From: Spirochaetia bacterium
Lineage (GTDB): Bacteria; Spirochaetota; Spirochaetia; DSM-2461
Assembly: GCA_963668315.1 (NCBI GenBank)
Contig: OY764216.1
Span: 4,288,001 to 4,352,000 of the forward strand
Reading direction: 5' to 3'
Length of the DNA: 64,000 bases
Shown here: piece by piece, positions 1 to 14,400 of the stretch
Layout: every line of letters starts with the position of its first letter
Position numbering within the stretch: the first letter of the stretch is position 1
Made by a program: the position numbers and the translations under genes
The notes under the pieces: model-generated
The model's database searches: none
What the model was told of the DNA's origin: nothing
The model's input: the letters and a program-made list of their open reading frames with translations, nothing else

Positions 1-431
1 CCGAAAGATCCTTTCCAGGAATGTCAGTAACACAATGGATACAGCATTTGTTATGGAAGCCTTATTACGAGCCATGATGAAACATGGTGTCCCTGAAATC
101 ATCAATACAGATCAGGGGAGTCAGTTCACCAGCCAGGATTTCACTTCTTTCCTAGAACATGTAATGGTTAAAATCAGCATGGATGGAAAGGGCCGGGCGT
201 TGGATAATATCTTTATTGAACGATTCTGGAAAACGTTGAAATACGAGGATATTTTTATCTATGGTTATGAGACTTTGAAGGATTTACGGAAAGGGGTGAA
301 GAAGTACATTAAGTTCTATAATTCAGAACGACCTCATCAGAGTCTGGGAGGAAAATCTCCTGATAAGATTTATCATTCTGATCAGAGCTTAATTGCAGCA
401 TAAGGGTGTATTGACTGGAGGGTTCACAATA
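1..431 (+). mobile_element. IS3-family insertion sequence, right part (truncated by window start)
   Basis: Encodes an OrfB C-terminus. The right end gtgtattgactggagggttcacaata (406-431) aligns with the right end of the second IS3 element, gtggtttgacacgagggctcatcata (12511-12536). Confidence 0.85.
2..403 (+). CDS. IS3-family transposase OrfB, C-terminal part (5'-partial)
   Basis: Motifs NTDQGSQFTS, SMDGKGRALDNIFIERFWKTLKYE and YNSERPHQSL; the frame is open from base 2. Confidence 0.9.
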   Translation, partial: RKILSRNVSNTMDTAFVMEALLRAMMKHGVPEIINTDQGSQFTSQDFTSFLEHVMVKISMDGKGRALDNIFIERFWKTLKYEDIFIYGYETLKDLRKGVKKYIKFYNSERPHQSLGGKSPDKIYHSDQSLIAA

Positions 432-439
432 TCTATAGT
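411..439 (+). promoter_or_regulatory. Candidate hybrid sigma70 promoter (-35 in IS end, -10 in flanking DNA)
   Basis: TTGACT (411-416), 17-bp spacer, TATAGT (434-439); the IS end is at 431. Confidence 0.45.
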
Positions 440-896
440 TGAAATCGAAACGCTAGCTCCCACTTCGAATTATCCAGATCAGAGAACTTAATTAATTTAT
501 GTTAGTAGGATATATGACCAGTGTGTAAAATTTATAATAATTTCTTTATAAAGATCGATTATTAACGTAAATTCATTTGACAGTAAATATAACTTTACCT
601 ATCATTTACTGGTAACTGATTTGAGTTTTCTGTTTTTTTACTATTAAAGCGCGAAACGTATTGTCTTTGGTGTATCAACCCCCTGGTGAGGCAGCAACTA
701 TGGAAATTAGGATTTTTATTAGGAATTATAATTTATACTGAAATACAGCTCTCGGTAAGAGAAAAGAACAGATTTATTATTCTAAAAACACAAGGAAATT
801 TTAATAGAGATTCAGTAATCAAATTAGTTATAAATATTTATTAATCAGGATTATGGAATCCATGTTATTAGAATAGATATAAGAGGCACAACGGGC

Positions 897-1787
897 ATGA
901 GAAGAATTTGTGTGTTCGCACATTATGATCAAAATAATAGAATTGACGATTATGTATTATTATACTTGAAAAGAATTAAAGAGGTAGTTACTCGCATAAT
1001 TTTTGTATCTGATAATAATTTATATACAGATGAAGTAAGTAAGATTTATGATGTAGTATCGCAAAGTGATATTCTTGTACAAAAACATGGAGAATATGAT
1101 TTTGGTAGTTACAAGAGAGGTATAAATCATATTGGTTTCAATCTACTTTTTTCTCTATATGATCAATTATTATTATGTAATGATAGTTGTTATGGGCCTT
1201 TTTTTCCTTTGAATCCTATTTTTCAAAAAATGTCAGATACAAAAAGTGATTTCTGGGGTTTAACCCAAAATGATCATCGAAAAAGAATGCCTCTGCATAT
1301 TCAGAGTTATTTCTTGGTTTTTAATAAATGTATCTTTCTTAATAAAAGTTTTAAAGCCTTTTGGGATGAAGTTGGTATATATAAAGAGAAAGATGATATA
1401 GTTTTAAACTATGAAGTTAAATTAACCACTATTTTGGTTAATGAAGGTTTTCAATTTAAAACTTATTTTGAAAATAAACATTACGATCTAACACTTCGTG
1501 ATTATAGCATCATTATTCCTAATGGTTTTCCTTTTTTAAAGAAACAATTAATAAATGGAAATCGTTATCGTTTAGATATTTATTCTTGGGACAAAGTCAT
1601 TAGAAATGTGACGGATTATCCAATTCGACTTATATTTAAACACTTGTTGAAAAATCGAAAGAAATCAGATTATTTTAGAATTTTAATTGAATGTATAAAA
1701 TACAAAGGAATTTTTAGTATATATTCTGTACAGGCATTTATTCAATATTTGTCTAATTTATTACACCTTAAAGTTATTTTTTTCTGA
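897..1787 (+). CDS. Rhamnan synthesis F (RgpF)-family protein, putative glycosyltransferase
   Basis: Motifs FAHYD..IDDYV, YDFGSYK, LCNDSCYGP, DFWGLT, HIQSYFLVF, YEVKLT. Confidence 0.75.
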   Translation: MRRICVFAHYDQNNRIDDYVLLYLKRIKEVVTRIIFVSDNNLYTDEVSKIYDVVSQSDILVQKHGEYDFGSYKRGINHIGFNLLFSLYDQLLLCNDSCYGPFFPLNPIFQKMSDTKSDFWGLTQNDHRKRMPLHIQSYFLVFNKCIFLNKSFKAFWDEVGIYKEKDDIVLNYEVKLTTILVNEGFQFKTYFENKHYDLTLRDYSIIIPNGFPFLKKQLINGNRYRLDIYSWDKVIRNVTDYPIRLIFKHLLKNRKKSDYFRILIECIKYKGIFSIYSVQAFIQYLSNLLHLKVIFF

Positions 1788-1836
1788 TATAAAATCCTAA
1801 GAAATATTAAATTACTATTTTGCAGAAGTAATAAGA

Positions 1837-2853
1837 TTGGGGATAGTGGTGAGAAATGAAAAAGTTGATATTCTTAGATTAATCGGAATATTCATGATAA
1901 TTTTAGCACATTCAGGAACTCCTGAAATAATATTTCAGGTAAGAAACTTTGATGTTCCCTTAATGGTTTTAATAAGCGGGATTTCCTTTTCCATTACCAG
2001 TAAAAGAAATTATTCTTATGGTACTTATATATTAAAACGAATAAAGAGGCTTGTTTTTCCTACATGGACTTTTCTTGCTTTTTATTTTTTATATTTATCT
2101 CAAACTAGTGAAGGTTTACCAGAATTGGAAGATATTATCCATTCATTTACTCTTCAAGGGGGAATCGGTTATGTTTGGATAATAAGAGTCTTTTTATTAG
2201 TTTCCATTAGCTTTCCTTTTCTAAAATATCTAAATGACAAAATAGATAAAGATTTTTATTTCCTTATTATTCTCATATCTCTATTATATTCTTTTGAAAT
2301 AATTAGGCTTTTAACCGTTAATAATAATTCAACCACACACATACTATCAGATATCTTTCTTTATATAATTCCGTATTCTATAATTGGATTTCTTGGAATA
2401 CGTATAATCTCACTATCCTCCGTAACTACTTTGAAATATGGTTTTGTTTTATTAATCATTTTTTTAACAATGGCTATTTATTATTATCACCAAAACAATG
2501 ATTTTATTCAAACTCAAGTATATAAGTACCCTCCCGGGATTTATTATACATCTTATGCTCTTTTTGTTTCTTTATTTCTATGGTTTTTTGTAAATATCTT
2601 TGGAGATAGATTCTATAATAATAGGATAATAAAAAAATTATTATTCTTATCTAAAAATACAATGTGGATATACCTTTGGCATATACCATTTGTATCAATA
2701 ATACAGACTAACTTTATCGTTAAATCTTTTTCTCTCTTTTTTATTGCTTCTTTTTTGATGTGCTTACAATATTATATAATTAAGAAGATTTGTGAGAAGG
2801 ATTTTTTATCAGATAAAACTAAGAAGAACCTTAGAGTAATATTTACTGGTTGA
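1837..2853 (+). CDS. Acyltransferase family 3 (integral-membrane O-acyltransferase)
   Basis: N-terminal DILRLIGIFMIILAH, FDVPLMVLISG, KRIKRL, WIYLWH; about 10 hydrophobic segments. The start may be GTG at 1848. Confidence 0.8.
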   Translation: MGIVVRNEKVDILRLIGIFMIILAHSGTPEIIFQVRNFDVPLMVLISGISFSITSKRNYSYGTYILKRIKRLVFPTWTFLAFYFLYLSQTSEGLPELEDIIHSFTLQGGIGYVWIIRVFLLVSISFPFLKYLNDKIDKDFYFLIILISLLYSFEIIRLLTVNNNSTTHILSDIFLYIIPYSIIGFLGIRIISLSSVTTLKYGFVLLIIFLTMAIYYYHQNNDFIQTQVYKYPPGIYYTSYALFVSLFLWFFVNIFGDRFYNNRIIKKLLFLSKNTMWIYLWHIPFVSIIQTNFIVKSFSLFFIASFLMCLQYYIIKKICEKDFLSDKTKKNLRVIFTG

Positions 2854-3025
2854 ACTATGATATTATATATTTAAAAATAAATAGCCCGATAAACAGGACT
2901 AAACTGACTTATGCTACCTCCTTATTTATACTAGCATTCTATGCTGAGCCCACAGGGTAAACCAGTACTTTAAATATTTAAGTTGGAATTCCCGATTCAT
3001 GATAATATGAAAAGGGAGAAAATCA

Positions 3026-3155
3026 ATGAAGAGAAAATTCGATGAAGAGTTCAAAGCGAAAGTAGCACTGGAAGCGTTAAAGGAAGAAAAAACTCTTCAG
3101 GAACTGGCTGAGGAATATGAAGTACATCCGAACCAGATCAGTATGTGGAAAAAAC
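3026..3155 (+). pseudogene. IS3 orfA, 5' fragment (HTH)
   Basis: [43 protein letters not shown], broken at 3156 by IS256-A. Confidence 0.85.
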
Positions 3156-3192
3156 GATAAAGCAACCCTTTTGTCTGTAAAATTAGAAAAAG

Positions 3193-3552
3193 TTAATCAG
3201 TCTCCATATTCAAATATCTTTTACCTGTAAACCACTGCTCATCTATTTCCATTAACAGAGCCGCGATCAGACGATCAACGGACTTCCTATTTGGAAATAT
3301 CATGGCTACCCTTGTTCGCCTCTTTATTTCTTTCATCTGCCGCTCTGCCAAATTTGAAGTTCTTAGCCGTCGCCAATGAGCCTTTGGCATTGAGAAGACG
3401 GTAAGGGACTCGGGGATATTCTCATCCATCCAGCTACTCAGATCGGGCGCCGTTTCCTCATATTTTTTAACAGCCATTGAAAGAAAGCGTTTCGCTTCTT
3501 CTCCATTGGGTGCGTTAAAAATAGTTCTGATGTCTTCTGCTACCTCCTTCTC
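3193..3552 (-). pseudogene. IS256-A copy 1 transposase, C-terminal fragment
   Basis: LRTSNLAERQMKEIKRRTRVAMIFPN, typical IS256 C-terminal catalytic region. Confidence 0.85.
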
Positions 3553-4901
3553 GGATAGCGTACAATCAAGTTCGCAATTTTAATTATTGAAAGAAGCCAT
3601 CGAATTCTCCAGAATGGTAATGCACAACTAAAACCATGGAGGAAGAAAACGATGGCTAAGGAAAATGATAATGGTAATCTGGAAAAAATGCTACTCCAAT
3701 TCATTTCGGAACCGGATCCCATTTTCAGCTTATTGAAATGGCTACTGGAAAAGCTTATGGAAATAGAAGCGGCGAATAAAGTAGGAGCTCAAAAGGGGTC
3801 TCATTCTACGGGAAGATCCACCCATTTTTCTGGATATCGACCACGCCGATTTGATACTCGTCTTGGAACACTGTATCTCCTTGTCCCCAAGCTCAGAAAA
3901 GGCGGATATATTCCCTTCTTTGTAACAGAAAAGAAGAGATCCGAGCAAGCTCTGATTCAGGTTGTCCAGGAAGCATTTATCAACGGTGTTTCAACCAGAA
4001 AGATTGAGAAATTGGCTATGAGTCTGGGCATTGAAAATATTTCAGCCAGCCAGGTCTCTGAAATCAATAAGGGACTTGATGAACAGGTAGATGAATTCCG
4101 CTATCGATCTCTTGATTCAGAATATCCTGTCATCTGGGTTGATGCCCTCTATGAAAAGATCCGGTATAACGGAAGAGTGAGAAATATGGCTGTGATGGTT
4201 GTATCTGGTGTTAATTCACAAGGATTCAAAGAAATCCTTGCTGTTGAACCAATGCAGGAAGAATCAGAAAGCACTTATACCGAACTGTTCAGGTCTCTTA
4301 AAGCAAGAGGATTTAAAAATGCCTGGCTCTGTGTCTCTGATGCCCATCTGGGACTTCAAGCCGCCATAAGAAAGGAACTCATCGGTTGCTCCTGGCAACG
4401 CTGTAAAATCCATTTTATGAGGAACATCCTGTCCCATCTTCCTGCCAGGGATAAAGAAGCTGTTGCCGGCAGAATTAAGCAGATTTGGAATCAACCGAAC
4501 TCCCAATCGGCCCGTGAATATGCATACCGAATTATAGAGGAATTTGAAGAACAATTTCCGAAGTCCATGACTTGTCTTGAAGACGGATTAGAAGACTCTC
4601 TTCAGTATTATGAATTCTCAGAAATAGACAGCCGGAAAACTGCTTCTACCAATCAACTGGAACGATTGAATCGGGAAATCCGTAGACGATCTCGTGTTGT
4701 GGGAATCTTTCCCAGTATTGACTCCTACCTTAGACTAGTCTGTTGTTACCTGATTGAATACTCAGAAGACTGGGCTTCGGGAAAACGGTATATCAGTGAG
4801 AAATCGATTGATGAACAAAGAATTAAATTAGGTCAGGCTGCCTAATGGGGAATTTTGATGGCTTCTTGAAAGGAAAGTTGCGAACATGGCTGGACACTAT
4901 C
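3553..4901 (+). mobile_element. IS256-family element type B, copy 1 (1349 bp, intact)
   Basis: Ends ggatagcgtacaatcaagttcgcaa and ttgcgaacatggctggacactatc. 8-bp TSD TCCTTCTC at 3545-3552 and 4902-4909. Confidence 0.9.
3652..4845 (+). CDS. IS256-family (Mutator-like) transposase
   Basis: GVSTRKI, WVDALYEK, VSDAHLGL, WQRCKIHF, STNQLERLNREIRRR; RBS GGAGG. Confidence 0.95.
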   Translation: MAKENDNGNLEKMLLQFISEPDPIFSLLKWLLEKLMEIEAANKVGAQKGSHSTGRSTHFSGYRPRRFDTRLGTLYLLVPKLRKGGYIPFFVTEKKRSEQALIQVVQEAFINGVSTRKIEKLAMSLGIENISASQVSEINKGLDEQVDEFRYRSLDSEYPVIWVDALYEKIRYNGRVRNMAVMVVSGVNSQGFKEILAVEPMQEESESTYTELFRSLKARGFKNAWLCVSDAHLGLQAAIRKELIGCSWQRCKIHFMRNILSHLPARDKEAVAGRIKQIWNQPNSQSAREYAYRIIEEFEEQFPKSMTCLEDGLEDSLQYYEFSEIDSRKTASTNQLERLNREIRRRSRVVGIFPSIDSYLRLVCCYLIEYSEDWASGKRYISEKSIDEQRIKLGQAA

Positions 4902-5604
4902 TCCTTCTCCATGCTCTTCTTGGGAACGTGATGAGAAGCATTCTGCTGGAGATGAAACTGACAGCGATGCCAGGGAACCGTAGGAAAAACAGCCTCTATT
5001 GCAGATTTTAGACCACTATGGGCATCTGAAGTTATCATTCTGACTCCATGTAAACCTCGGTCAACCAATCCAGCGAGGAACTTTCTCCAATGAACATCAG
5101 CCTCGCTGAGTTCTGTTGAAATCCCAAGAACCCTTCTCATTCCCTTATTATCAACTCCATAAGCAATTAGAACGGCTGCCGAAACGACAGCTCTATCCAC
5201 ACGAGCTTTTTCATAGGTCGCATCCACAATGAGATAGCGAAAAGCTCCCAGAGGGCGATTCCGCCACTTAGAAATCTCTTCATCCAGCAGTGCGGTTGCT
5301 TCAGAAACCTGGGATTGGGAAACTTCGAAGCCGCAGAGCTGTTCTACAATTTTGGTTACTCTGCGAGTTGATACCCCCTGGATATACATCTGAGCTATTG
5401 CCATTTTCAACGCCCTTTCGCTGCGGCACCCTTTTTCAATGCTGCCAGGATAGAATTCCATCCCACGGACCTGCGGAATCTCGATAGGGATCTCACCTAC
5501 ACGAGTTCGAATCTTCCTGCTTTTGTACCCGTTTCTATGGCCAATGCGATCGTCATTCCGTTCATAATGACTGGCTTGGATTGCCTTCTCTTGCTCTAAC
5601 CGCA
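4902..5604 (-). pseudogene. IS256-A copy 1 transposase, middle fragment
   Basis: GVSTRRV, IVDATYEK, TSDAHSGL, WHRCQFH; homologous to 9831-10727. Confidence 0.85.
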
Positions 5605-5669
5605 TGTTGAATCACACATTATCCTGACCAAAACTTCCAGATTATTCTGGAATCCAAATTATTTTAACA

Positions 5670-5688
5670 GCTTCCCCGAAAGGGAAGC
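5670..5688 (-). terminator. Hairpin just downstream of the transposon operon, candidate terminator
   Basis: gcttccc-cgaaa-gggaagc lies 8 bp beyond the stop of 5697..6002; the U-tract is weak. Confidence 0.45.
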
Positions 5689-5696
5689 CATAAATC

Positions 5697-6002
5697 TTAG
5701 AACGGCAAACTTAACTGTCCGTCAAAATCCGCATCAGGATCAAGAGAAAGTTCATCCCACTCCTTCTCAAGTATCTCCTCAATTACCGGTACAGAGACCT
5801 TTCCATAATAGAGAGCTCTCTCACAGGCTGCCTCCATTCTCACCGGCGAGACCTTAAACGTCAGATCCAAAAACCGACTGACCTCTTCATATTTCTCATG
5901 GCACCACCTACCCCACAACATATAGGCTACCTGCCTGGTTTTCTCCATGAAAAGATAAGTTTCAGGAGGAGTAAAGCGAAAAAAAGTTTTCCCATTATCC
6001 AT
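5697..6002 (-). CDS. Small transposon protein resembling the IS21 IstA C-terminal helical region, ending in QLSLPF
   Basis: RBS AGGAGG; segment RMEAACERALYYGKVSVPVIEEILEK; lies in the operon directly after the ATPase. Confidence 0.7.
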   Translation of the reverse strand: MDNGKTFFRFTPPETYLFMEKTRQVAYMLWGRWCHEKYEEVSRFLDLTFKVSPVRMEAACERALYYGKVSVPVIEEILEKEWDELSLDPDADFDGQLSLPF

Positions 6003-6016
6003 ACGGCTTCCTCCTG

Positions 6017-6820
6017 TTAGATGATTTCGGTCTGAGCGATGCGAACATGTTCCGCGGAAACGAGCTGACTTTTTTCTTTCGCCGCCGCCATCATAGCTCC
6101 CCTGGCGATGGTGTTAGCCCGTCTTAGAAGTCCTCCCGATGTTTGATGGATAGCAAGAATGGCTTCATCTGCGAATAGGGGCTTCTCCATCCCGGCCAGA
6201 TGAAGATGATGTTCCAGGTATCCTTTCATATGCTTCAGATTCAGACTGTCCAAATGGGAGCGCCCCACGATACGCGATGCCAGGGGTTTGGCGGAAATAG
6301 CCATGAGTTTGTCTATGAGCCCGTCCTGCCCGCAGAGAATTATGGGCATAATCGGGTTTGAATCAAAATCAAACTGACAGAGAGTATGAAGCTGGTTGAA
6401 GACCTTGGACTTAAGAAGATGGGCTTCATCTATAACGAGAATGGGGACTTTTTTCTTTGAAGCAATGTCTTTTATGATATCCCGGACATTTTTCATCGCG
6501 ATAGCCAGCTGAAATGAACGGTACTCCTCCCCAAACTCCATAAGAAACTGCCGTAAAAGCTCCATCATACTGCCCGATGTAGCGACCAGCGAGATAATCT
6601 TGTACTTCCCCGGGTGGAACTTACTACACGCCAATCTCAGAGATGTGGATTTCCCGGATCCTACTTCCCCAGTGATGAGAGAGATAGCTCCCAGCTTTAC
6701 GGCGTATTCAAATCTGTCCAAAAGGGGCGGTAGTCCAGGCAGCATATAGAGATCATCCAATTTGATTTTCTGAGAATAGGGCTCCTGTGTTAATCCGTAA
6801 AAATGCTTTATATCAATCAT
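6017..6820 (-). CDS. AAA+ ATPase, ExeA/TnsC/MuB-like transposition regulator
   Basis: Walker A GEVGSGKS, Walker B VIDEAH, LCGQ, SRI; overlaps the transposase stop. Confidence 0.9.
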   Translation of the reverse strand: MIDIKHFYGLTQEPYSQKIKLDDLYMLPGLPPLLDRFEYAVKLGAISLITGEVGSGKSTSLRLACSKFHPGKYKIISLVATSGSMMELLRQFLMEFGEEYRSFQLAIAMKNVRDIIKDIASKKKVPILVIDEAHLLKSKVFNQLHTLCQFDFDSNPIMPIILCGQDGLIDKLMAISAKPLASRIVGRSHLDSLNLKHMKGYLEHHLHLAGMEKPLFADEAILAIHQTSGGLLRRANTIARGAMMAAAKEKSQLVSAEHVRIAQTEII

Positions 6821-8102
6821 CGTTTTCTTCCTCCGAGAATAGTTGTCCGCCGCTATAGGGATTGGAATTCAGATCAGCTTGAATCTCTGAACGTTTGACC
6901 TGGCTATTGATATGCACGTCCATAGGTTTAAGAAATCCTCTGGATTTATCGGCAATAAAGATTTCTACCCGGCTCATATCCGATTCATCGTAAGAGAGGT
7001 AGACCTTCTGCCCTGCCAGACCGATGGGTGCCTGGTATAGTTTTCCCTCGATACTGACCGATCTGTCATTGGTTACCGTTCTGAGCAGTCTCTTACGAAA
7101 ATAATCATTCAGATTCTCCGGAGCCGATCGAAGAAGGGTTAGTGATTTCAAATAACGGTCCAGAGGTTTCTCCCGGATTGAAGAGTGTTTCCTAATATGA
7201 TAATTCTCATCAATGAAAGCAGCGAGATGCCCGTTCAATTCCTCCAATGTCAGTTCTTCCGGAAGGGCTTGAAGAACCTCCATCCTGACCGTCCTGTTAA
7301 ATCTTTCGATTTTCCCTTTCCCTTGAGGGCGGTAGGGCTTCGCATACGTCAGAACAATCCCCAGAGAAGCGCAACCGTATTGAAGCTTATGGGATTTGAA
7401 ATAAGCGCCGTTGTCCGTGTAGAGTTTACGGGGAAGGCCACGCTTAACCAGGGCTTTCTTCATACAGTCGATAAAATTGTCCACATTCTCCCGTAGATAG
7501 AACTGGGCATGGGGAATAAGACGGGAATGATCGTCGATGATGGCGAACATATAGGATTTTCTACGGCGGCCCTCATGAATGACATAAGGACCGTGCATAC
7601 AGTCCGATTGCCAGAGGTCATTGGGAAACTCCACTTCGAACTTCAACATATCTTCCTTCTGCTTCCTCTCCTTACCCAGTCCATGTTTTTTCAGAATTCT
7701 ATAGATGGATTGGGAGGAGGCGTTGAAGTCGGGAGGAAGTACATTTCTTTGCCGGGCCAGCCTCATCAAGACGGGAACGGATGCCTTCATAAAATCCTTT
7801 CTCAGATTAATGAAGGCCAGTTCTGTTTCCCTGTCCATAATGCGGCATCCGCCCTGGTCCCCCCGGCTTTTGGGATGCAGACTCTCTATTTGCCGACCGC
7901 TGGATTCATACTTTCTGAGCCAACTGAGGATAGTCGCGCGGCTGATATAGGTACGGGTGGAAAAAGGGATATTCCACTCCCTAGCCGTCAATTTATCAAG
8001 GACATCCCTTTGCATACCCCAATCTTCTCTGCTCAGATCCAGTAAAGGATAGATCACAGAAAACCGGAAGGCGGCTACTTTTTCTCGTTCTTCTTTGGTC
8101 AT
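6813..8102 (-). CDS. DDE-type integrase/transposase (rve core plus Mu-transposase C-like domain)
   Basis: WQSDCMHGP, AIIDDHSR, YTDNGAYF, PYRPQGKGKIERFNRTV, RTVTNDRSVS; RBS AGGAGG. Confidence 0.92.
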   Translation of the reverse strand: MTKEEREKVAAFRFSVIYPLLDLSREDWGMQRDVLDKLTAREWNIPFSTRTYISRATILSWLRKYESSGRQIESLHPKSRGDQGGCRIMDRETELAFINLRKDFMKASVPVLMRLARQRNVLPPDFNASSQSIYRILKKHGLGKERKQKEDMLKFEVEFPNDLWQSDCMHGPYVIHEGRRRKSYMFAIIDDHSRLIPHAQFYLRENVDNFIDCMKKALVKRGLPRKLYTDNGAYFKSHKLQYGCASLGIVLTYAKPYRPQGKGKIERFNRTVRMEVLQALPEELTLEELNGHLAAFIDENYHIRKHSSIREKPLDRYLKSLTLLRSAPENLNDYFRKRLLRTVTNDRSVSIEGKLYQAPIGLAGQKVYLSYDESDMSRVEIFIADKSRGFLKPMDVHINSQVKRSEIQADLNSNPYSGGQLFSEEENDD

Positions 8103-8130
8103 AAAACCTCCTAAAACGTTTTATTTCCAT

Positions 8131-8619
8131 TTAAGGCGGTATTTTATTAGTTGTCACTGCAAAGCTAAGGTAGGTCATGCAGAGAGCTACCGATTTCACA
8201 TCATGATTTATCGAATGTGAGGGGAAGCAGAACCGATTCTGAACGCTGTCTGAAAGGAAAAGGGAGAGATCAAAATTCAGTCCCTGAATAGCAGCTTGTT
8301 TCATCAGTCCCCGATACCAGTATTGCTGCCTTTGACGGCTGAAGGATGTGAACCAGGTATGGGATTCTAACTTATGAGAAAGGCTTCGATAAATTTCTGT
8401 AGCGGTTGATTGAAACCTGGGGAAATATGCAACAGGCCTGGCCGTATGTACCGCTCCGCACTCGGGACAGCGGAATCTTTTGAGGTAGAGTCCTTCCGGA
8501 AATTCGTCGAAATAACGCAGTACATAACCATGCCCCCAGATCCTGAAACTTTGGCAGGAAGGACATCTTCTTGGTTTCCTCCAGACATAATTCTTATGTT
8601 TCTCTTTAAGGACAGCCAA
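8131..8619 (-). CDS. Zinc-finger protein (DUF6431-like) of the transposon
   Basis: CPSC...GHGY...RFRCPECG..H..P; first gene of the operon. Start codon uncertain (TTG). Confidence 0.7.
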   Translation of the reverse strand: MAVLKEKHKNYVWRKPRRCPSCQSFRIWGHGYVLRYFDEFPEGLYLKRFRCPECGAVHTARPVAYFPRFQSTATEIYRSLSHKLESHTWFTSFSRQRQQYWYRGLMKQAAIQGLNFDLSLFLSDSVQNRFCFPSHSINHDVKSVALCMTYLSFAVTTNKIPP

Positions 8620-8652
8620 ATCCGTCCGAAAATAAATTATGATTTATGGGTT

Positions 8653-8694
8653 GGGATAGCCGTTCTTGCAGGAACAATAGGCTATCCCTTTTTT
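8653..8694 (+). terminator. Intrinsic terminator near the transposon end, antisense to the transposon genes
   Basis: gggatagcc...ggctatccc stem followed by TTTTTT. Confidence 0.6.
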
Positions 8695-8786
8695 ATCGAT
8701 AATTTATTTTGTGAAAATGAAGTATAAAAATATTTTATTGTGGAATATTGATAGAATAATCTGATAGATTAATGTTGGATTCTACA

Positions 8787-8900
8787 CCGCATAGATAAAT
8801 TCATTATTGAACTTATGACCTTTGTTAATCCTTCTCGATTATCTGCCTGGAGCTCTTCAATCATTTGATCGAAAACGGTATAGTAATCCTCGTTAGTCAT
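8787..8900 (-). pseudogene. IS256-A copy 1 transposase, N-terminal fragment
   Basis: MTNEDYYTVFDQMIEELQADNREGLTKVISSIMNLSM, nearly identical to the start of 9831..10733. Confidence 0.85.
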
Positions 8901-9000
8901 GATGCCTTCTTTTGTTTTTGGTCGAACTAATCGAAGACTGATTGGCTAACTTTTTCAAGCCCCCTTTATTTCTAATTTACAGACACTATTGTACACTATC

Positions 9001-9181
9001 GAAAAAACAGCTTATGGAAAATGCCAGTTCCCTCTTTGTCCGAAAGAATAAAAAAGACAAAGAACTGGAAGAAATGAAGAAAAAAGAGCAGGAACTTTTC
9101 AAGCAGCTGGGTGAAGCTAATTATGTGAACGAATTTCTAAAAAAAAAGTACAAACAACTATACGGGAAGGATTACAAATGA
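9001..9181 (+). pseudogene. IS3 orfA, 3' fragment
   Basis: KKQLMENASSLF...EFLKKKYKQ continues the 3026-3155 frame across the TSD. Confidence 0.85.
9139..9148 (+). promoter_or_regulatory. Candidate -1 programmed ribosomal frameshift site (A9G) of the IS3 element
   Basis: AAAAAAAAAG near the orfA end; the -1 frame is open into the orfB ATG at 9178. OrfAB fusion by -1 frameshifting is typical of the IS3 family. Confidence 0.65.
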
Positions 9182-9730
9182 TAGAGCCGGATCATAGGAA
9201 ATTGTCTGTCCGGAAGCAATGTAAAATTCTCAATGTCAGCAGGACGGCTTATTACTATGATCCCAAACCGGAAGATCGGAAAGATATAGAAGAGAAGATT
9301 CGCCTTAAAGAACTTTTCATTCAGATCCCATTCTATGGTTATCGAAAAATGGCTGAGGAATTGAATTCAGAAGGCTATAATACAAGCAGAAAGCGAGTTC
9401 GCCGTCTTATGAGAGAATTAGGCTTACGGGCTATTTCTCCCAGAAAATTTACCTCTATCCCCAATAAGCAGAATCCCATCTATCCTTATCTTTTAAAGGG
9501 AAAAAGAATCCGCTATCCCAATCAGGTTTGGGCCACTGATATCACCTATCTTAAAATGGATAAGGGATTTGCCTACCTTGTAGCCATAATGGACGTCTGG
9601 AGCCGTAAGGTATTAACCTGGAAGATCTCTACTACTTTGGATTCTGAGTTCTGTATCGCCGCCGTAAAGGAAGCTATGGATAAATATGGAACGCCGGCGA
9701 TCTTTAATACGGATCAGGGGTGTCAATTTA
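9178..9730 (+). pseudogene. IS3 orfB, 5' fragment
   Basis: FYGYRKM, KRVRRLM, PNQVWATDITY, AIMDVWSRKVL, FNTDQGCQF; broken at 9731. Confidence 0.9.
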
Positions 9731-9830
9731 GATAGTGTACAATAGTGTCTGTAAATTAGAAATAAAGGGGGCTTGAAAAAGTTAGCCAATCAGTCTTCGA
9801 TTAGTTCGACGAAAAACAAAAGAAGGCATC

Positions 9831-10727
9831 ATGACTAACGAGGATTACTATAGCGTTTTCGATCAAATGATTGAAGACCTCCAGGCAGAGAATAGAGAAG
9901 GATTAACAAAAGTCATAAGTTCAATAATGAATTTATCTATGCGGTTAGAGCAGGAGAAGGCAATTCAAGCCAGTCATTATGAACGGAACGATGATCGTAT
10001 TGGGCATAGGAATGGGTACAAGAGCAGAAAGATCCGGACTCGAGTCGGCGAAATTCCCATCGAGATCCCACAGGTCCGTGGGATGGAATTCTATCCTGGC
10101 AGCATTGAAAAGGGGTGCCGCAGCGAAAGAGCCCTGAAAATGGCCATAGCTCAGATGTACATCCAAGGCGTATCAACTCGCAGAGTGACCAAAATAGTAG
10201 AACAGCTCTGCGGCTTCGAAGTTTCCCAATCGCAGGTTTCAGAAGCGGCAGCTCTCCTTGATGAAGAGATCACCAAATGGCGTAATCGTCCTCTGGGAGC
10301 TTTTCCTTATCTTGTCGTTGACGCCACTTATGAGAAGGCTCGAGTGAATAGAACTGTTGTTTCTGCAGCCGTTCTAATTGCCTATGGTGTTGATAATAAT
10401 GGGATGAGACGAGTATTGGGTATTTCTACAGAACTCAGTGAGGCCGATGTACACTGGAGAGGTTTTCTTTCCGGTCTGGTAGATCGGGGGCTCCATGGCG
10501 TGAAGATGATAACTTCCGATGCTCATAGCGGCCTGAGATCAGCAATAGAATCGGTTTTTCCAACAGTTCCCTGGCAGCGGTGCCAGTTCCATCTGCAACA
10601 GAATGCGGGACATCATGTGCCAAAGAAAAGTATGGATAAAGAGGTCGCGGAGGATATAAGAACCATTTTTAACGCTCCCAATGGAGAGGAGGCTAACCGT
10701 TTTCTTTCTATGGCGGTGAAGAAGTAT
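9831..10727 (+). pseudogene. IS256-A copy 2 transposase, truncated by IS256-B
   Basis: IS256 motifs up to MAVKKY; the remaining tail VSALLMEIDEQWFTGKRYLNMETD lies at 12077-12152. Confidence 0.88.
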
Positions 10728-12076
10728 GGATAGCGTACAATCAAGTTCGCAATTTTAATTATTGAAAGAAGCCATCGAATTCTCCAGAATGGTAATGCAC
10801 AACTAAAACCATGGAGGAAGAAAACGATGGCTAAGGAAAATGATAATGGTAATCTGGAAAAAATGCTACTCCAATTCATTTCGGAACCGGATCCCATTTT
10901 CAGCTTATTGAAATGGCTACTGGAAAAGCTTATGGAAATAGAAGCGGCGAATAAAGTAGGAGCTCAAAAGGGGTCTCATTCTACGGGAAGATCCACCCAT
11001 TTTTCTGGATATCGACCACGCCGATTTGATACTCGTCTTGGAACACTGTATCTCCTTGTCCCCAAGCTCAGAAAAGGCGGATATATTCCCTTCTTTGTAA
11101 CAGAAAAGAAGAGATCCGAGCAAGCTCTGATTCAGGTTGTCCAGGAAGCATTTATCAACGGTGTTTCAACCAGAAAGATTGAGAAATTGGCTATGAGTCT
11201 GGGCATTGAAAATATTTCAGCCAGCCAGGTCTCTGAAATCAATAAGGGACTTGATGAACAGGTAGATGAATTCCGCTATCGATCTCTTGATTCAGAATAT
11301 CCTGTCATCTGGGTTGATGCCCTCTATGAAAAGATCCGGTATAACGGAAGAGTGAGAAATATGGCTGTGATGGTTGTATCTGGTGTTAATTCACAAGGAT
11401 TCAAAGAAATCCTTGCTGTTGAACCAATGCAGGAAGAATCAGAAAGCACTTATACCGAACTGTTCAGGTCTCTTAAAGCAAGAGGATTTAAAAATGCCTG
11501 GCTCTGTGTCTCTGATGCCCATCTGGGACTTCAAGCCGCCATAAGAAAGGAACTCATCGGTTGCTCCTGGCAACGCTGTAAAATCCATTTTATGAGGAAC
11601 ATCCTGTCCCATCTTCCTGCCAGGGATAAAGAAGCTGTTGCCGGCAGAATTAAGCAGATTTGGAATCAACCGAACTCCCAATCGGCCCGTGAATATGCAT
11701 ACCGAATTATAGAGGAATTTGAAGAACAATTTCCGAAGTCCATGACTTGTCTTGAAGACGGATTAGAAGACTCTCTTCAGTATTATGAATTCTCAGAAAT
11801 AGACAGCCGGAAAACTGCTTCTACCAATCAACTGGAACGATTGAATCGGGAAATCCGTAGACGATCTCGTGTTGTGGGAATCTTTCCCAGTATTGACTCC
11901 TACCTTAGACTAGTCTGTTGTTACCTGATTGAATACTCAGAAGACTGGGCTTCGGGAAAACGGTATATCAGTGAGAAATCGATTGATGAACAAAGAATTA
12001 AATTAGGTCAGGCTGCCTAATGGGGAATTTTGATGGCTTCTTGAAAGGAAAGTTGCGAACATGGCTGGACACTATC
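10728..12076 (+). mobile_element. IS256-family element type B, copy 2 (1349 bp, no TSD)
   Basis: Same ends as 3553-4901 and an identical 397-aa protein; the flanks do not repeat. Confidence 0.9.
10827..12020 (+). CDS. IS256-family transposase (identical to 3652..4845)
   Basis: Identical translation in the ORF track. Confidence 0.95.
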   Translation: MAKENDNGNLEKMLLQFISEPDPIFSLLKWLLEKLMEIEAANKVGAQKGSHSTGRSTHFSGYRPRRFDTRLGTLYLLVPKLRKGGYIPFFVTEKKRSEQALIQVVQEAFINGVSTRKIEKLAMSLGIENISASQVSEINKGLDEQVDEFRYRSLDSEYPVIWVDALYEKIRYNGRVRNMAVMVVSGVNSQGFKEILAVEPMQEESESTYTELFRSLKARGFKNAWLCVSDAHLGLQAAIRKELIGCSWQRCKIHFMRNILSHLPARDKEAVAGRIKQIWNQPNSQSAREYAYRIIEEFEEQFPKSMTCLEDGLEDSLQYYEFSEIDSRKTASTNQLERLNREIRRRSRVVGIFPSIDSYLRLVCCYLIEYSEDWASGKRYISEKSIDEQRIKLGQAA

Positions 12077-12188
12077 GGTTTCCGCTCTGTTAATGGAAAT
12101 AGATGAACAATGGTTCACAGGTAAGCGGTATTTAAATATGGAGACTGATTAACTTTTTTGATTTTACAGACAAAGGGGTTGCTCTATC

Positions 12189-12453
12189 TCAATTTACTTC
12201 ATATGCTTTTTTGAAACCGCTCCAGGAAGCGGGAGTCAGAATCAGTATGGATGGTCAGGGAAGCTGGCGTGACAACATCTATGTGGAACGTCTTTGGCGT
12301 AGTTTAAAATACGAGGATATCTATCTCCGATCCTATGAGAATGTCCGGGAGTTGAAGAAAGGGATACAGAAATACTTTCGCTTCTACAACGGGAAAAGAT
12401 TTCATCAGGGGCTTGGTTATTTAACTCCTGATGATGTTTATGAGTCCTTATAG
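12189..12453 (+). pseudogene. IS3 orfB, 3' fragment
   Basis: QFTSYAFLKPL...ISMDGQGSWRDNIYVERLWRSLKYE continues 9178-9730. Confidence 0.88.
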
Positions 12454-12538
12454 ATTGGGAAGGATCAGGCAGCTTGATATCGGAGGATTCCACTTATTAA
12501 TTTTGAAAAAGTGGTTTGACACGAGGGCTCATCATAAT

Positions 12539-12688
12539 TCAAAAAAGTGGGATAGGATTATTTCATCCTGGGAAAGAAGCGTTTTAAGTCAAAAGGGATT
12601 TTGCAATCAAAATAATCTGCCCTTATCCACTTTTCATTATTGGAGGCGAAAGCTTGATAAAGAAGCCTATAGAAAACATCTTCTATGA
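12539..12688 (+). pseudogene. IS66 TnpA (OrfA)-like remnant
   Basis: WDRIISSWERSVLSQKGFCNQNNLPLSTFHYWRRKL fits the IS66 accessory HTH pattern; no start codon and no tnpB/tnpC. Confidence 0.6.
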
Positions 12689-13882
12689 TTGTAAAATGGT
12701 TTCAGCAAACCGTTTAATGTCTTTCTTTGCGTTGAGAGCCCAACTATCAGCACGCGAAATAAAATTCATAAAACATTCTACATTAATTTTAAAACTTTCA
12801 TTATCATTTTTCTCAGTTTCCTCGCATACGAACATTGCAGAAGGGATCCCTAAATTTAAACAAGAATCGGTTATATTTCTTGCAACTCGACAAGGAGGCT
12901 GAAGTACTATCATCAAACTATCATTATTAAGAGTATACATTGCCGGACGTAAATGACTACCTTCTACTCCGATGACTATTGATGCTCCTATCAGTTGATA
13001 AATGAGGTTCCCTGTTACAACAGAATTAATATCCACACAAGAAAAACCTTCTTTAGATAATTGATGAATCAAATCTTCTTCATTTTGGAGAGTTCTTCGT
13101 TGTCCATCGTTACCACGTTTTATATATATTTTGTTTTTTTTAACATTATTTTTTTGATATAATAATTTTCGAATTTCATTATGTTCCTTTATACATGCAA
13201 TACTTGTATTTTGACCATCACACATAATCAAATGATTACATAAAAAAGATTCTGATTCATCAATATGTGGTAGATCAACTAGATTTCTCCAACTATCCTC
13301 ATCCCTATACTTTTCCCTTGGTAAATATCCAATGAATGGCCCTCGATTTCTTAGAAGTAGCTGCAAAGGATATTCTTGAGAAAGCCAATGTCCCCAATAC
13401 CTAGATGAATAATATGTGTTAGCCATAATGGCAAGATTATATTTTTTTATTTTACCAGGAATAGAAAGAGGAAGTTTATCTTTCCAATTAAAACTATAAC
13501 TAATTTTTCCAGTAAACATCCACGATTTATTAATAAATACATTTCGAAAATGAAGGACTTTACACTCAGGAAAAACACGGAGTTCCTCACGAAATGATTC
13601 TAAAATTGAGTTAAAAGAACGATCACCCCACTCATCACTAACATTATCTGGAATATTTCTTAAATTCTCTTCTTCCATATATGGATGAAGAGCGGGAATA
13701 GAAACTGAGCTTGAGATTACTTCAACCTTGTCAGCATTATATTCAAGTTTAGATTTATTTTTATTTGAAACAACCTTACCAAACACAAAAATACTATAGT
13801 ATTTCACCATGGTAATAATACTCGATATTTTCATTATGCACTCCATATAACAAATATCAATTAGCTTACACGAGTTGTTCAA
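12683..13882 (-). CDS. Glycosyltransferase family 61 (DUF563)-like protein
   Basis: YWGHWL..., KIYIKRG...RRTLQNEEDL, ASIVIGVEGSHL. Confidence 0.7.
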   Translation of the reverse strand: MNNSCKLIDICYMECIMKISSIITMVKYYSIFVFGKVVSNKNKSKLEYNADKVEVISSSVSIPALHPYMEEENLRNIPDNVSDEWGDRSFNSILESFREELRVFPECKVLHFRNVFINKSWMFTGKISYSFNWKDKLPLSIPGKIKKYNLAIMANTYYSSRYWGHWLSQEYPLQLLLRNRGPFIGYLPREKYRDEDSWRNLVDLPHIDESESFLCNHLIMCDGQNTSIACIKEHNEIRKLLYQKNNVKKNKIYIKRGNDGQRRTLQNEEDLIHQLSKEGFSCVDINSVVTGNLIYQLIGASIVIGVEGSHLRPAMYTLNNDSLMIVLQPPCRVARNITDSCLNLGIPSAMFVCEETEKNDNESFKINVECFMNFISRADSWALNAKKDIKRFAETILQS

Positions 13883-14400
13883 TCATTTTTTATAATTCTA
13901 GCAGGCATACCAATAGCCGTACAATTACAAGGGATATCAGAAAGAACAACCGCATTGGCTCCAATTTTCACATTATTCCCGATGTTAAGGAAATCCTGAT
14001 CGCACGCTTTATCTGTTACATCTCGATCTATATGTTTACTAATAATTTTTGCACCAGCTCCTATATCAACATGAGAACCAATTCTTACACACCCACCTAC
14101 AGTTACCTGTTGCAATATTAAACAGTTTGTACCAATTTCGGCTAAAGAATATATAACTATTCCATTGGGATGAGGAATGAGTAACCCCCCCCCGATCTTA
14201 CACTGAAGAGGAATATCTGCTCCAGATACAACAGACCAAAATCGATACCTTAAAACACATATTTTTTTAATGAAAAAAAACAAAGGATTTTTACTATTGA
14301 GTTTCTGATAATCACGAATTGATTTCAGTAATCTTTGCCCGGGATCCCAAAATCGCTTCGGTTTTTCGCGATCCCAATCAGGTTTCTCATCCATTACCAT
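13879..14400 (-). CDS. Serine O-acetyltransferase-like hexapeptide-repeat acetyltransferase
   Basis: IGGGLLIPHPNGIVI, QQVTVG, IGAGAKI, IGANAVV, GMPARI. Confidence 0.85.
   Translation of the reverse strand: MVMDEKPDWDREKPKRFWDPGQRLLKSIRDYQKLNSKNPLFFFIKKICVLRYRFWSVVSGADIPLQCKIGGGLLIPHPNGIVIYSLAEIGTNCLILQQVTVGGCVRIGSHVDIGAGAKIISKHIDRDVTDKACDQDFLNIGNNVKIGANAVVLSDIPCNCTAIGMPARIIKND

Follow-up and report, generated by a model that had tools for sequence, protein, structure and literature searches.

In several described systems, transposition is tied to the beta sliding clamp (DnaN). For the Tn3 transposase TnpA (QLxxLR) and for nine insertion sequence (IS) families with C-terminal clamp motifs, the connection is described with a patchy distribution (PMC3971601, PMC11417375), and Tn7 encodes an accessory protein, TnsE, for which access to replicating DNA through the clamp has been proposed (PMC3971601, PMC10293859). 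IS66 TnpB and a stand-alone leucine-zipper open reading frame (ORF) of Bacilli are described as split-off transposase domains with a C-terminal beta motif (PMC3971601). TniQ/TnsD is described as present throughout the Tn7 branch, and the same 2023 survey states that no target selector has been reported for IS21 (PMC10293859). Target choice in IS21 and in TniQ-less TnsB/ATPase transposons is an open question. The subject here is a 3,182-bp, four-gene transposon with TG...CA ends (5605..8786, minus strand; delimited by comparing genome copies, ends, and flanks). It lies in a 64,000-nt stretch of a Spirochaetia bacterium (contig OY764216.1, positions 4,288,001 to 4,352,000), hereafter the window, whose own numbering is used throughout. 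The last gene, ORF4 (5697..6002, minus strand), encodes a 101-aa stand-alone protein homologous to the helical domain at the C-terminus of long IS21 IstA transposases. Our preferred reading, to which we assign a probability of about 0.45, is that ORF4 is an optional clamp-binding accessory that favors replicating DNA.

ORF4 is the last gene of a four-gene operon and starts 14 nt past the stop codon of an AAA+ ATPase gene, with a ribosome-binding site (AGGAGG; 6010..6015, minus strand) 7 nt ahead of its ATG. These coordinates and the start signal agree with the first-pass annotation of this DNA, which had described a 101-aa ORF with a strong ribosome-binding site as the terminal gene of a TG...CA transposon behind an AAA+ ATPase. 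As also read there, the translation contains RMEAACERALYYG..VIEEILEK and ends in DPDADFDGQLSLPF. Codons 96–101 (5700..5717, minus strand) encode QLSLPF, a hexameric clamp-binding-like motif at the extreme C-terminus. ORF4 has no Pfam match and no meaningful NCBIfam match, and, in line with the first-pass annotation, neither database shows any likeness to the TnsD, TnsE, and Cas families. The structure models are all-helical, with a predicted local distance difference test (pLDDT) score of 85.8 in one model and 94.7 for residues 18–92 in a second.

Like TnsE, ORF4 is an element-encoded accessory, and its mode of action may resemble that of TnsE or of the IS66 accessory ORFs that bear the motif. 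However, TnsE consists of PriB-like folds and a DNA-binding domain (PMC10293859), whereas ORF4 has only 101 aa and an all-helical model; TnsE was not among the matches listed in fold searches with the ORF4 models. The transposon also differs from Tn7 in lacking TnsA/TniQ and in showing no orientation bias among six insertions. As with IS66 TnpB and the leucine-zipper ORF, a transposase domain has become a separate ORF with a C-terminal beta motif. However, the domain and the family are different, and the split ORF of IS66 stays in its own IS family, whereas ORF4 has crossed from IS21 to another transposon type. In Tn3 TnpA and the nine IS families the motif is on the transposase itself, whereas in our transposon an accessory gene carries it. 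DUF6431-DDE-ExeA ATPase elements in GenBank, which are annotated gene by gene and some of whose transposases are labeled as IS481 family, share the three-gene core and its order with our transposon, but their fourth gene is different or absent. No description of the ORF4 protein, of DUF6431-DDE-ExeA elements, or of mimics of the tail of single-stranded DNA-binding protein (SSB) in transposons was found in a literature search that covered few subscription papers and had ISfinder outside its range.

The tail of ORF4 fits QLxLxF, and PMC11139829 places the QLSLPF type within the highest-affinity class of clamp motifs. Among 6,424 host ORFs of at least 150 aa, one has QLxLxF as its final six residues, and 132 (2.1%) have a looser clamp motif within the last 30 residues, compared with 47 of the 56 members of the ORF4 family. 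In the conserved family tail, G-Q-x-x-[LF]-x-F, 53 of 56 members retain Q96 and 55 of 56 have L or F at residue 99 (motif position 4). Matches to the loose clamp motif are seen in 52 of 56 members and in 18 of 20 representatives with <50% identity. One subgroup ends in the pentamer QL[ST]L[FW] and the others in a hexamer, which are the two known forms of the clamp motif (PMC11139829). Moreover, P0018, P0047, P0052, and P0056 have lost the upstream D and G but retain Q-L-x-[LF]-x-F. On the host side, the clamp, encoded at 765188-766294 of the host genome (G000), retains the pocket residues T173, G175, L178, P243, V248, M363, P364, and M365, and an ORF that we take to be DinB-like ends in QLDLF. 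Judged from these sequences, the ORF4 tail probably binds DnaN; if so, action as a positive targeting adaptor would be the likelier outcome.

Long IS21 IstA proteins (about 490–570 aa) are homologous to ORF4 over ~95 residues, including RLExACxRA..Y and IL...LD, and a minority subtype shares GQxx[LF]xF with it. In contrast to IS21 IstA, ORF4 is stand-alone, lacks the IstB-contacting beta-barrel and the AR..YF / NIRG..YY ending, and resides in a non-IS21 element. A full HMMER scan with ORF4 yielded 19 homologs of 71–138 aa, and a profile search of 762 candidates yielded 43 matches, from which two IstA fragments were removed; the final set comprises 56 stand-alone proteins including ORF4 (55 homologs), and the first 20 have identities to ORF4 of 24–46%. 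The profile of this family matches the C-terminus of 488–548-aa IS21-type transposases (E down to 4e-20, per genome) in 27 of 401 genomes, so the IstA likeness that the first-pass annotation had seen by eye is real. A tree places 33 stand-alone rows and 35 IstA domains on the two sides of one branch with a Shimodaira–Hasegawa-like approximate likelihood ratio test (SH-aLRT) support of 96; this was a quick tree from few columns, with stand-alone rows picked by their likeness to ORF4. The ratio of nonsynonymous to synonymous substitution rates (dN/dS) is 0.13–0.18 for four homologs of one subgroup and 0.08–0.13 for their ATPases. In a variant of ORF4 from run X5, four of the six changes are synonymous among those listed (P 0.017), and the listed changes leave the motif untouched. 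The host genome has no IS21 transposase above the cut-off. We therefore regard ORF4 as a maintained gene rather than debris, and a decayed IS21 fragment was rejected because of the AGGAGG start signal, the purifying selection, the separate branch, and the constant position after the ATPase. On the sequence comparisons, the ORF4 family is real, under selection, of single origin, and freed from IS21 IstA. The stand-alone members lack the IstA-specific AR..YF continuation; because some IstA tails have GQxx[LF]xF before AR, the tail segment was inherited and subsequently exposed by truncation. GQxx[LF]xFAR occurs near the end of a minority of long IS21 IstAs (L010, L011, L012, L015, and L023), and L028 ends in QLSLL; judging from such endings, clamp motifs in IS21 itself are possible.

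ORF4 homologs keep the same slot across loci. In four of four metagenome loci with a distant ORF4 subgroup, which were selected by ORF4 and represent one lineage, the gene lies 21–24 nt past an ATPase gene of the same type, and the zinc finger and TnsB genes are visible upstream in two of them. Among 80 loci selected by their ATPase, four (L065, L084, L086, and L097) have a homolog in the same place. All eight other loci with DNA thus have it right behind the same ATPase type, at a distance of 10–24 nt in operon position, also in the lineage of L097 with a 31%-identical ATPase, although genomic context is available for a minority of the 56 family proteins. The linkage to this transposon type is borne out in both selections. 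In L086 (1315-2150), the N-terminal part of the ATPase continues in frame into a truncated ORF4 homolog, apparently via a deletion.

Among 20 distinct elements of the close clade, ORF4 is present in three and another gene in one; in most of the remainder, the element end is visible 50–170 bp past the ATPase gene. On the ATPase tree, ORF4 presence requires five changes, at least four of which are forced by strong branches; this tree was also quick, and five of its eight ORF4-labeled rows were not selected by ATPase. Together, these patterns make ORF4 an optional, mobile module. Other small ORFs of unassigned family stand behind the ATPase gene in L040 and in L094/L095 (73+ aa; 66 aa, cysteine-rich).

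Among other members of this transposon family, the fourth position is occupied in other ways. Of 41 matched plasmid elements with annotation, 11 were examined; in six of them the annotation includes a fourth ORF of 65–86 aa that ends in ADPHPPF, TEAPF, ELDLPF, VSDPI, HIDDPF, or RIDDPF. Fourth genes with SSB-tail-like endings lie at L190:4595-4792, L191:4550-4807, L192:4664-4861, L215:3844-4104, L217:3906-4130, L218:3893-4129, L077:3059-3358, and L136:2900-3088, those of L077 and L136 ending in GPDIPF and SDDLPFD. The encoded proteins are unrelated, and each terminates with an acidic residue plus P-F or P-I, of the D-x-x-P-F kind that resembles the C-terminal tail of SSB; the five that were scanned have no Pfam match. 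Endings of the acidic/P-F type occur in 13 of the 6,424 host ORFs, one of which ends in YEDDIPF and is presumably SSB, given the tail consensus that we assume for SSB. In L134 (3365-3715), L140, and L142, the product of the fourth gene is a CHC2 zinc finger protein of the DnaG type, ~116 aa long. In six ATPase-selected loci of an actinomycete clade plus L216 and L220, all distant relatives (L128, L129, L130, L139, L143, L144, L216, and L220), no fourth gene is seen and TnsB itself has a low-complexity tail with GQLDLL, GQFDLL, GQLSF, or GQLSI. Three-gene elements with neither a fourth gene nor a TnsB clamp motif exist too. It is conceivable, though doubtful, that the fourth slot of DUF6431-TnsB-ExeA transposons is swappable and takes small replisome-docking adaptors, namely the IS21-derived, possibly DnaD-like domain with its clamp motif, several unrelated proteins that mimic the SSB tail, or a primase-type zinc finger, and that slotless lineages put the clamp motif on TnsB, a pattern noticed post hoc in a small sample. 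If true, these adaptors would form a class of target selectors that is TniQ-independent and arises through mimicry of host peptides, and the unexplained tail domain of IS21 IstA would gain a function as well. Such modularity would imply repeated evolution of replisome-docking peptides and would offer very small targeting modules for integration tools.

We propose that ORF4 serves as an optional accessory protein in a TniQ-less transposon related to Mu and Tn7. The sequence evidence shows that it arose a single time, by severance of a long IS21 transposase's helical tail domain just past G-Q-x-x-[LF]-x-F, and that it has been retained and exchanged among transposon lineages ever since. The exposed tail probably binds the host beta clamp at its peptide pocket, and the helical body, possibly DnaD-like, may bind forked or single-stranded DNA, TnsB, or the ATPase, which is the weakest step. 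The effect would be more transposition into replicating or newly acquired DNA with unfixed orientation, a TnsE-like job performed by an unrelated protein. A clamp adaptor gains support because unrelated fourth-slot proteins and TnsB tails show docking-like motifs, and because IS66, the Tn3 TnpA–DnaN link, and TnsE provide precedents. The scores of ORF4 against the DnaD/DnaB_2 domain (2ZC2, 2I5U) were all within the noise range for helical domains and give no more than a lead. With a deletable 101-aa gene in an active 3.2-kb element and natural ORF4-less sisters as controls, clamp-guided targeting is directly testable.

A number of observations, in this paragraph and the next, weigh against such an adaptor. 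The six genomic insertions are three co-directional and three head-on (P 0.016 under a 90% bias), with replication directions derived from an origin near 0.76 Mb and a terminus near 3.58 Mb, n = 6, and four copies in one 60-kb island; the insertion-strand bias envisaged in the first-pass annotation was thus not found. An ORF4-less sister element is present at six copies in another genome (G418), and ORF4 is therefore dispensable for mobility; most sister elements lack the gene yet still multiply. The IstA C-terminus had been named as the ATPase contact, whereas the 2024 IS21 structure paper assigns the contact of IstA with the IstB ATPase to the beta-barrel and the DDE domain; in that paper, the C-terminal region is unseen and its role undefined. 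ORF4 has neither of these domains, as no Pfam match to a beta-barrel of the Mu-transpos_C type was found and the model is helical. Some of these points favor ORF4 as a clamp-binding regulator or clean-up factor, which would compete with the TnsB tail, limit transposition, or aid post-insertion gap repair. Its presence in only three of 20 close elements and the lack of strand bias agree with this, as do the TnsB tails of the close clade, which are alike ([GS]GxLF) with or without ORF4; since an LF pair on its own is able to bind the clamp (PMC11139829), the transposase may already dock there. However, the ORF4-bearing element has six identical copies against single ORF4-less sisters in the same genome, a weak contrast from one genome, and we consider a regulator unlikely.

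The tail itself may have a different meaning. Conservation of the terminal QLxLxF, which the first-pass annotation had named as a point to check, is borne out for the loose form, Q-x-x-[LF]-x-F; the strict clamp motif as defined in PMC11139829 fits only 17 of 56 members and 5 of 20 representatives with <50% identity. F, Y, K, R, Q, or P frequently stands at position 2, examples of endings outside the strict motif being QFKLDF and QYRFDF. One subgroup commonly has W at position 5, a residue that weakened the binding of a tested peptide (PMC11139829). Three members have K or N instead of Q, and L097 retains the gene but has lost the motif. D92 and G95 match Q96 in their degree of conservation, and residues 91 and 97 are paired in the model in a hairpin-like manner, which allows a structural reading of the tail. 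In addition, GQxx[LF]xF followed by AR is already found inside four full-length IstAs and one fragment among 48 IstA-type tails, and the loose segment may therefore have been inherited for another reason. ORF4 may thus do in trans what the IstA tail domain does in cis, such as DNA binding or oligomer contact, with a tail that is structural or binds a transposition protein and with QLSLPF as a lucky member of a looser pattern. We regard this as rather unlikely given the switch between pentamer and hexamer, the subgroup that lost D and G while keeping Q-L-x-[LF]-x-F, the docking-like tails in parallel on unrelated fourth-slot proteins, and the reduced model confidence at the tail (block pLDDT 80 and 69, terminal, yet with the 91/97 beta-bridge in the same model). 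Alternatively, ORF4 may be cargo or a hitch-hiker without a role in transposition, e.g., an old IS21 remnant kept for a host-side effect. The absence of the gene from most close elements and the limited context would suit this, but single origin with deep divergence, purifying selection, a host without IS21 over the cut-off, and the constant operon position even behind a 31%-identical ATPase make cargo very improbable.

All six copies lie in low-GC DNA (10-kb flank GC 0.35–0.456, compared with a genome 10th percentile of 0.459). Several lie amid other mobile elements, and four are within 60 kb, 0.2–0.26 Mb from the terminus. Tn1721, which uses DnaN, is described as preferring plasmids and the terminus region (PMC11417375). 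The target pattern of our transposon is compatible with clamp-guided insertion, but equally with an ATPase that prefers AT-rich DNA, with local hopping, or with survival bias.

The other three genes of the operon are also on the minus strand. They encode a 162-aa DUF6431-like zinc-finger protein (8131..8619; PF20020 E 0.001, below cut-off, with relatives annotated as DUF6431), a 429-aa TnsB/Mu-like DDE transposase (6813..8102; rve and Mu-transpos_C matches, and 198 bits on an IS481 model, under the cut-off of 224), and a 267-aa ExeA-type AAA+ ATPase (6017..6820; PF13401 E 5e-19, TIGR03015 below cut-off). The ATPase may have a TnsC/MuB-like role. The transposase tail is GGQLF plus acidic residues, and the [GS]GxLF at 6813-6850 and in close relatives could be an ATPase-binding hook or a Q-less clamp motif. 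A short hairpin, seen by eye right after the ORF4 stop (5670..5688, minus strand), is a possible terminator. Both ends have an imperfect terminal inverted repeat, accompanied at the downstream end (5605..5660) by short internal repeats, which are likely transposase binding sites, and at the upstream end (8740..8786) by internal direct repeats; the ends of sister elements resemble the downstream end. Tn7-like traits are the TnsB-like DDE transposase with an AAA+ ATPase, the TG...CA ends, and the 5-bp duplication, and no TniQ/TnsD match was found in Pfam or NCBIfam among the four gene products. Assignment to IS21 was rejected, with the transposase at 59 bits on NF033546 (cut-off 160) and the ATPase without an IstB match.

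Flank comparison identified the target-site duplication CCGCA on both sides (5600..5604 and 8787..8791, plus strand). The insertion interrupts a minus-strand transposase gene, which we take to be of the IS256 type (3' part 4823..5605, 5' part from 8787 on), and its flanks occur 17 times in the host genome. The chromosome carries six full-length copies of the transposon with 100% identity, five with a 5-bp duplication, and a run from a different study (X5) contains a whole copy with 98.4% identity, 52 differences, and another flank. The transposon is recently active. Two sister elements in the same chromosome (~55% protein identity) end directly after the ATPase gene. One copy (G000:C1:3323466-3326647) sits in the zinc-finger gene of a sister element, ~270 bp past the end of which lies a solo second right-end sequence. 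The sole copy without target duplication (G000:C1:3379136-3382317) adjoins ORFs labeled by eye as ParA-like and primase-like and is perhaps inside an integrated element. Finally, positions 1-14400 of the window are low in GC, contain surface-polysaccharide-type genes, and are crowded with nested elements, presumably IS256-like and IS3-like; one 1.4-kb element occurs there twice, 7,175 bp apart.
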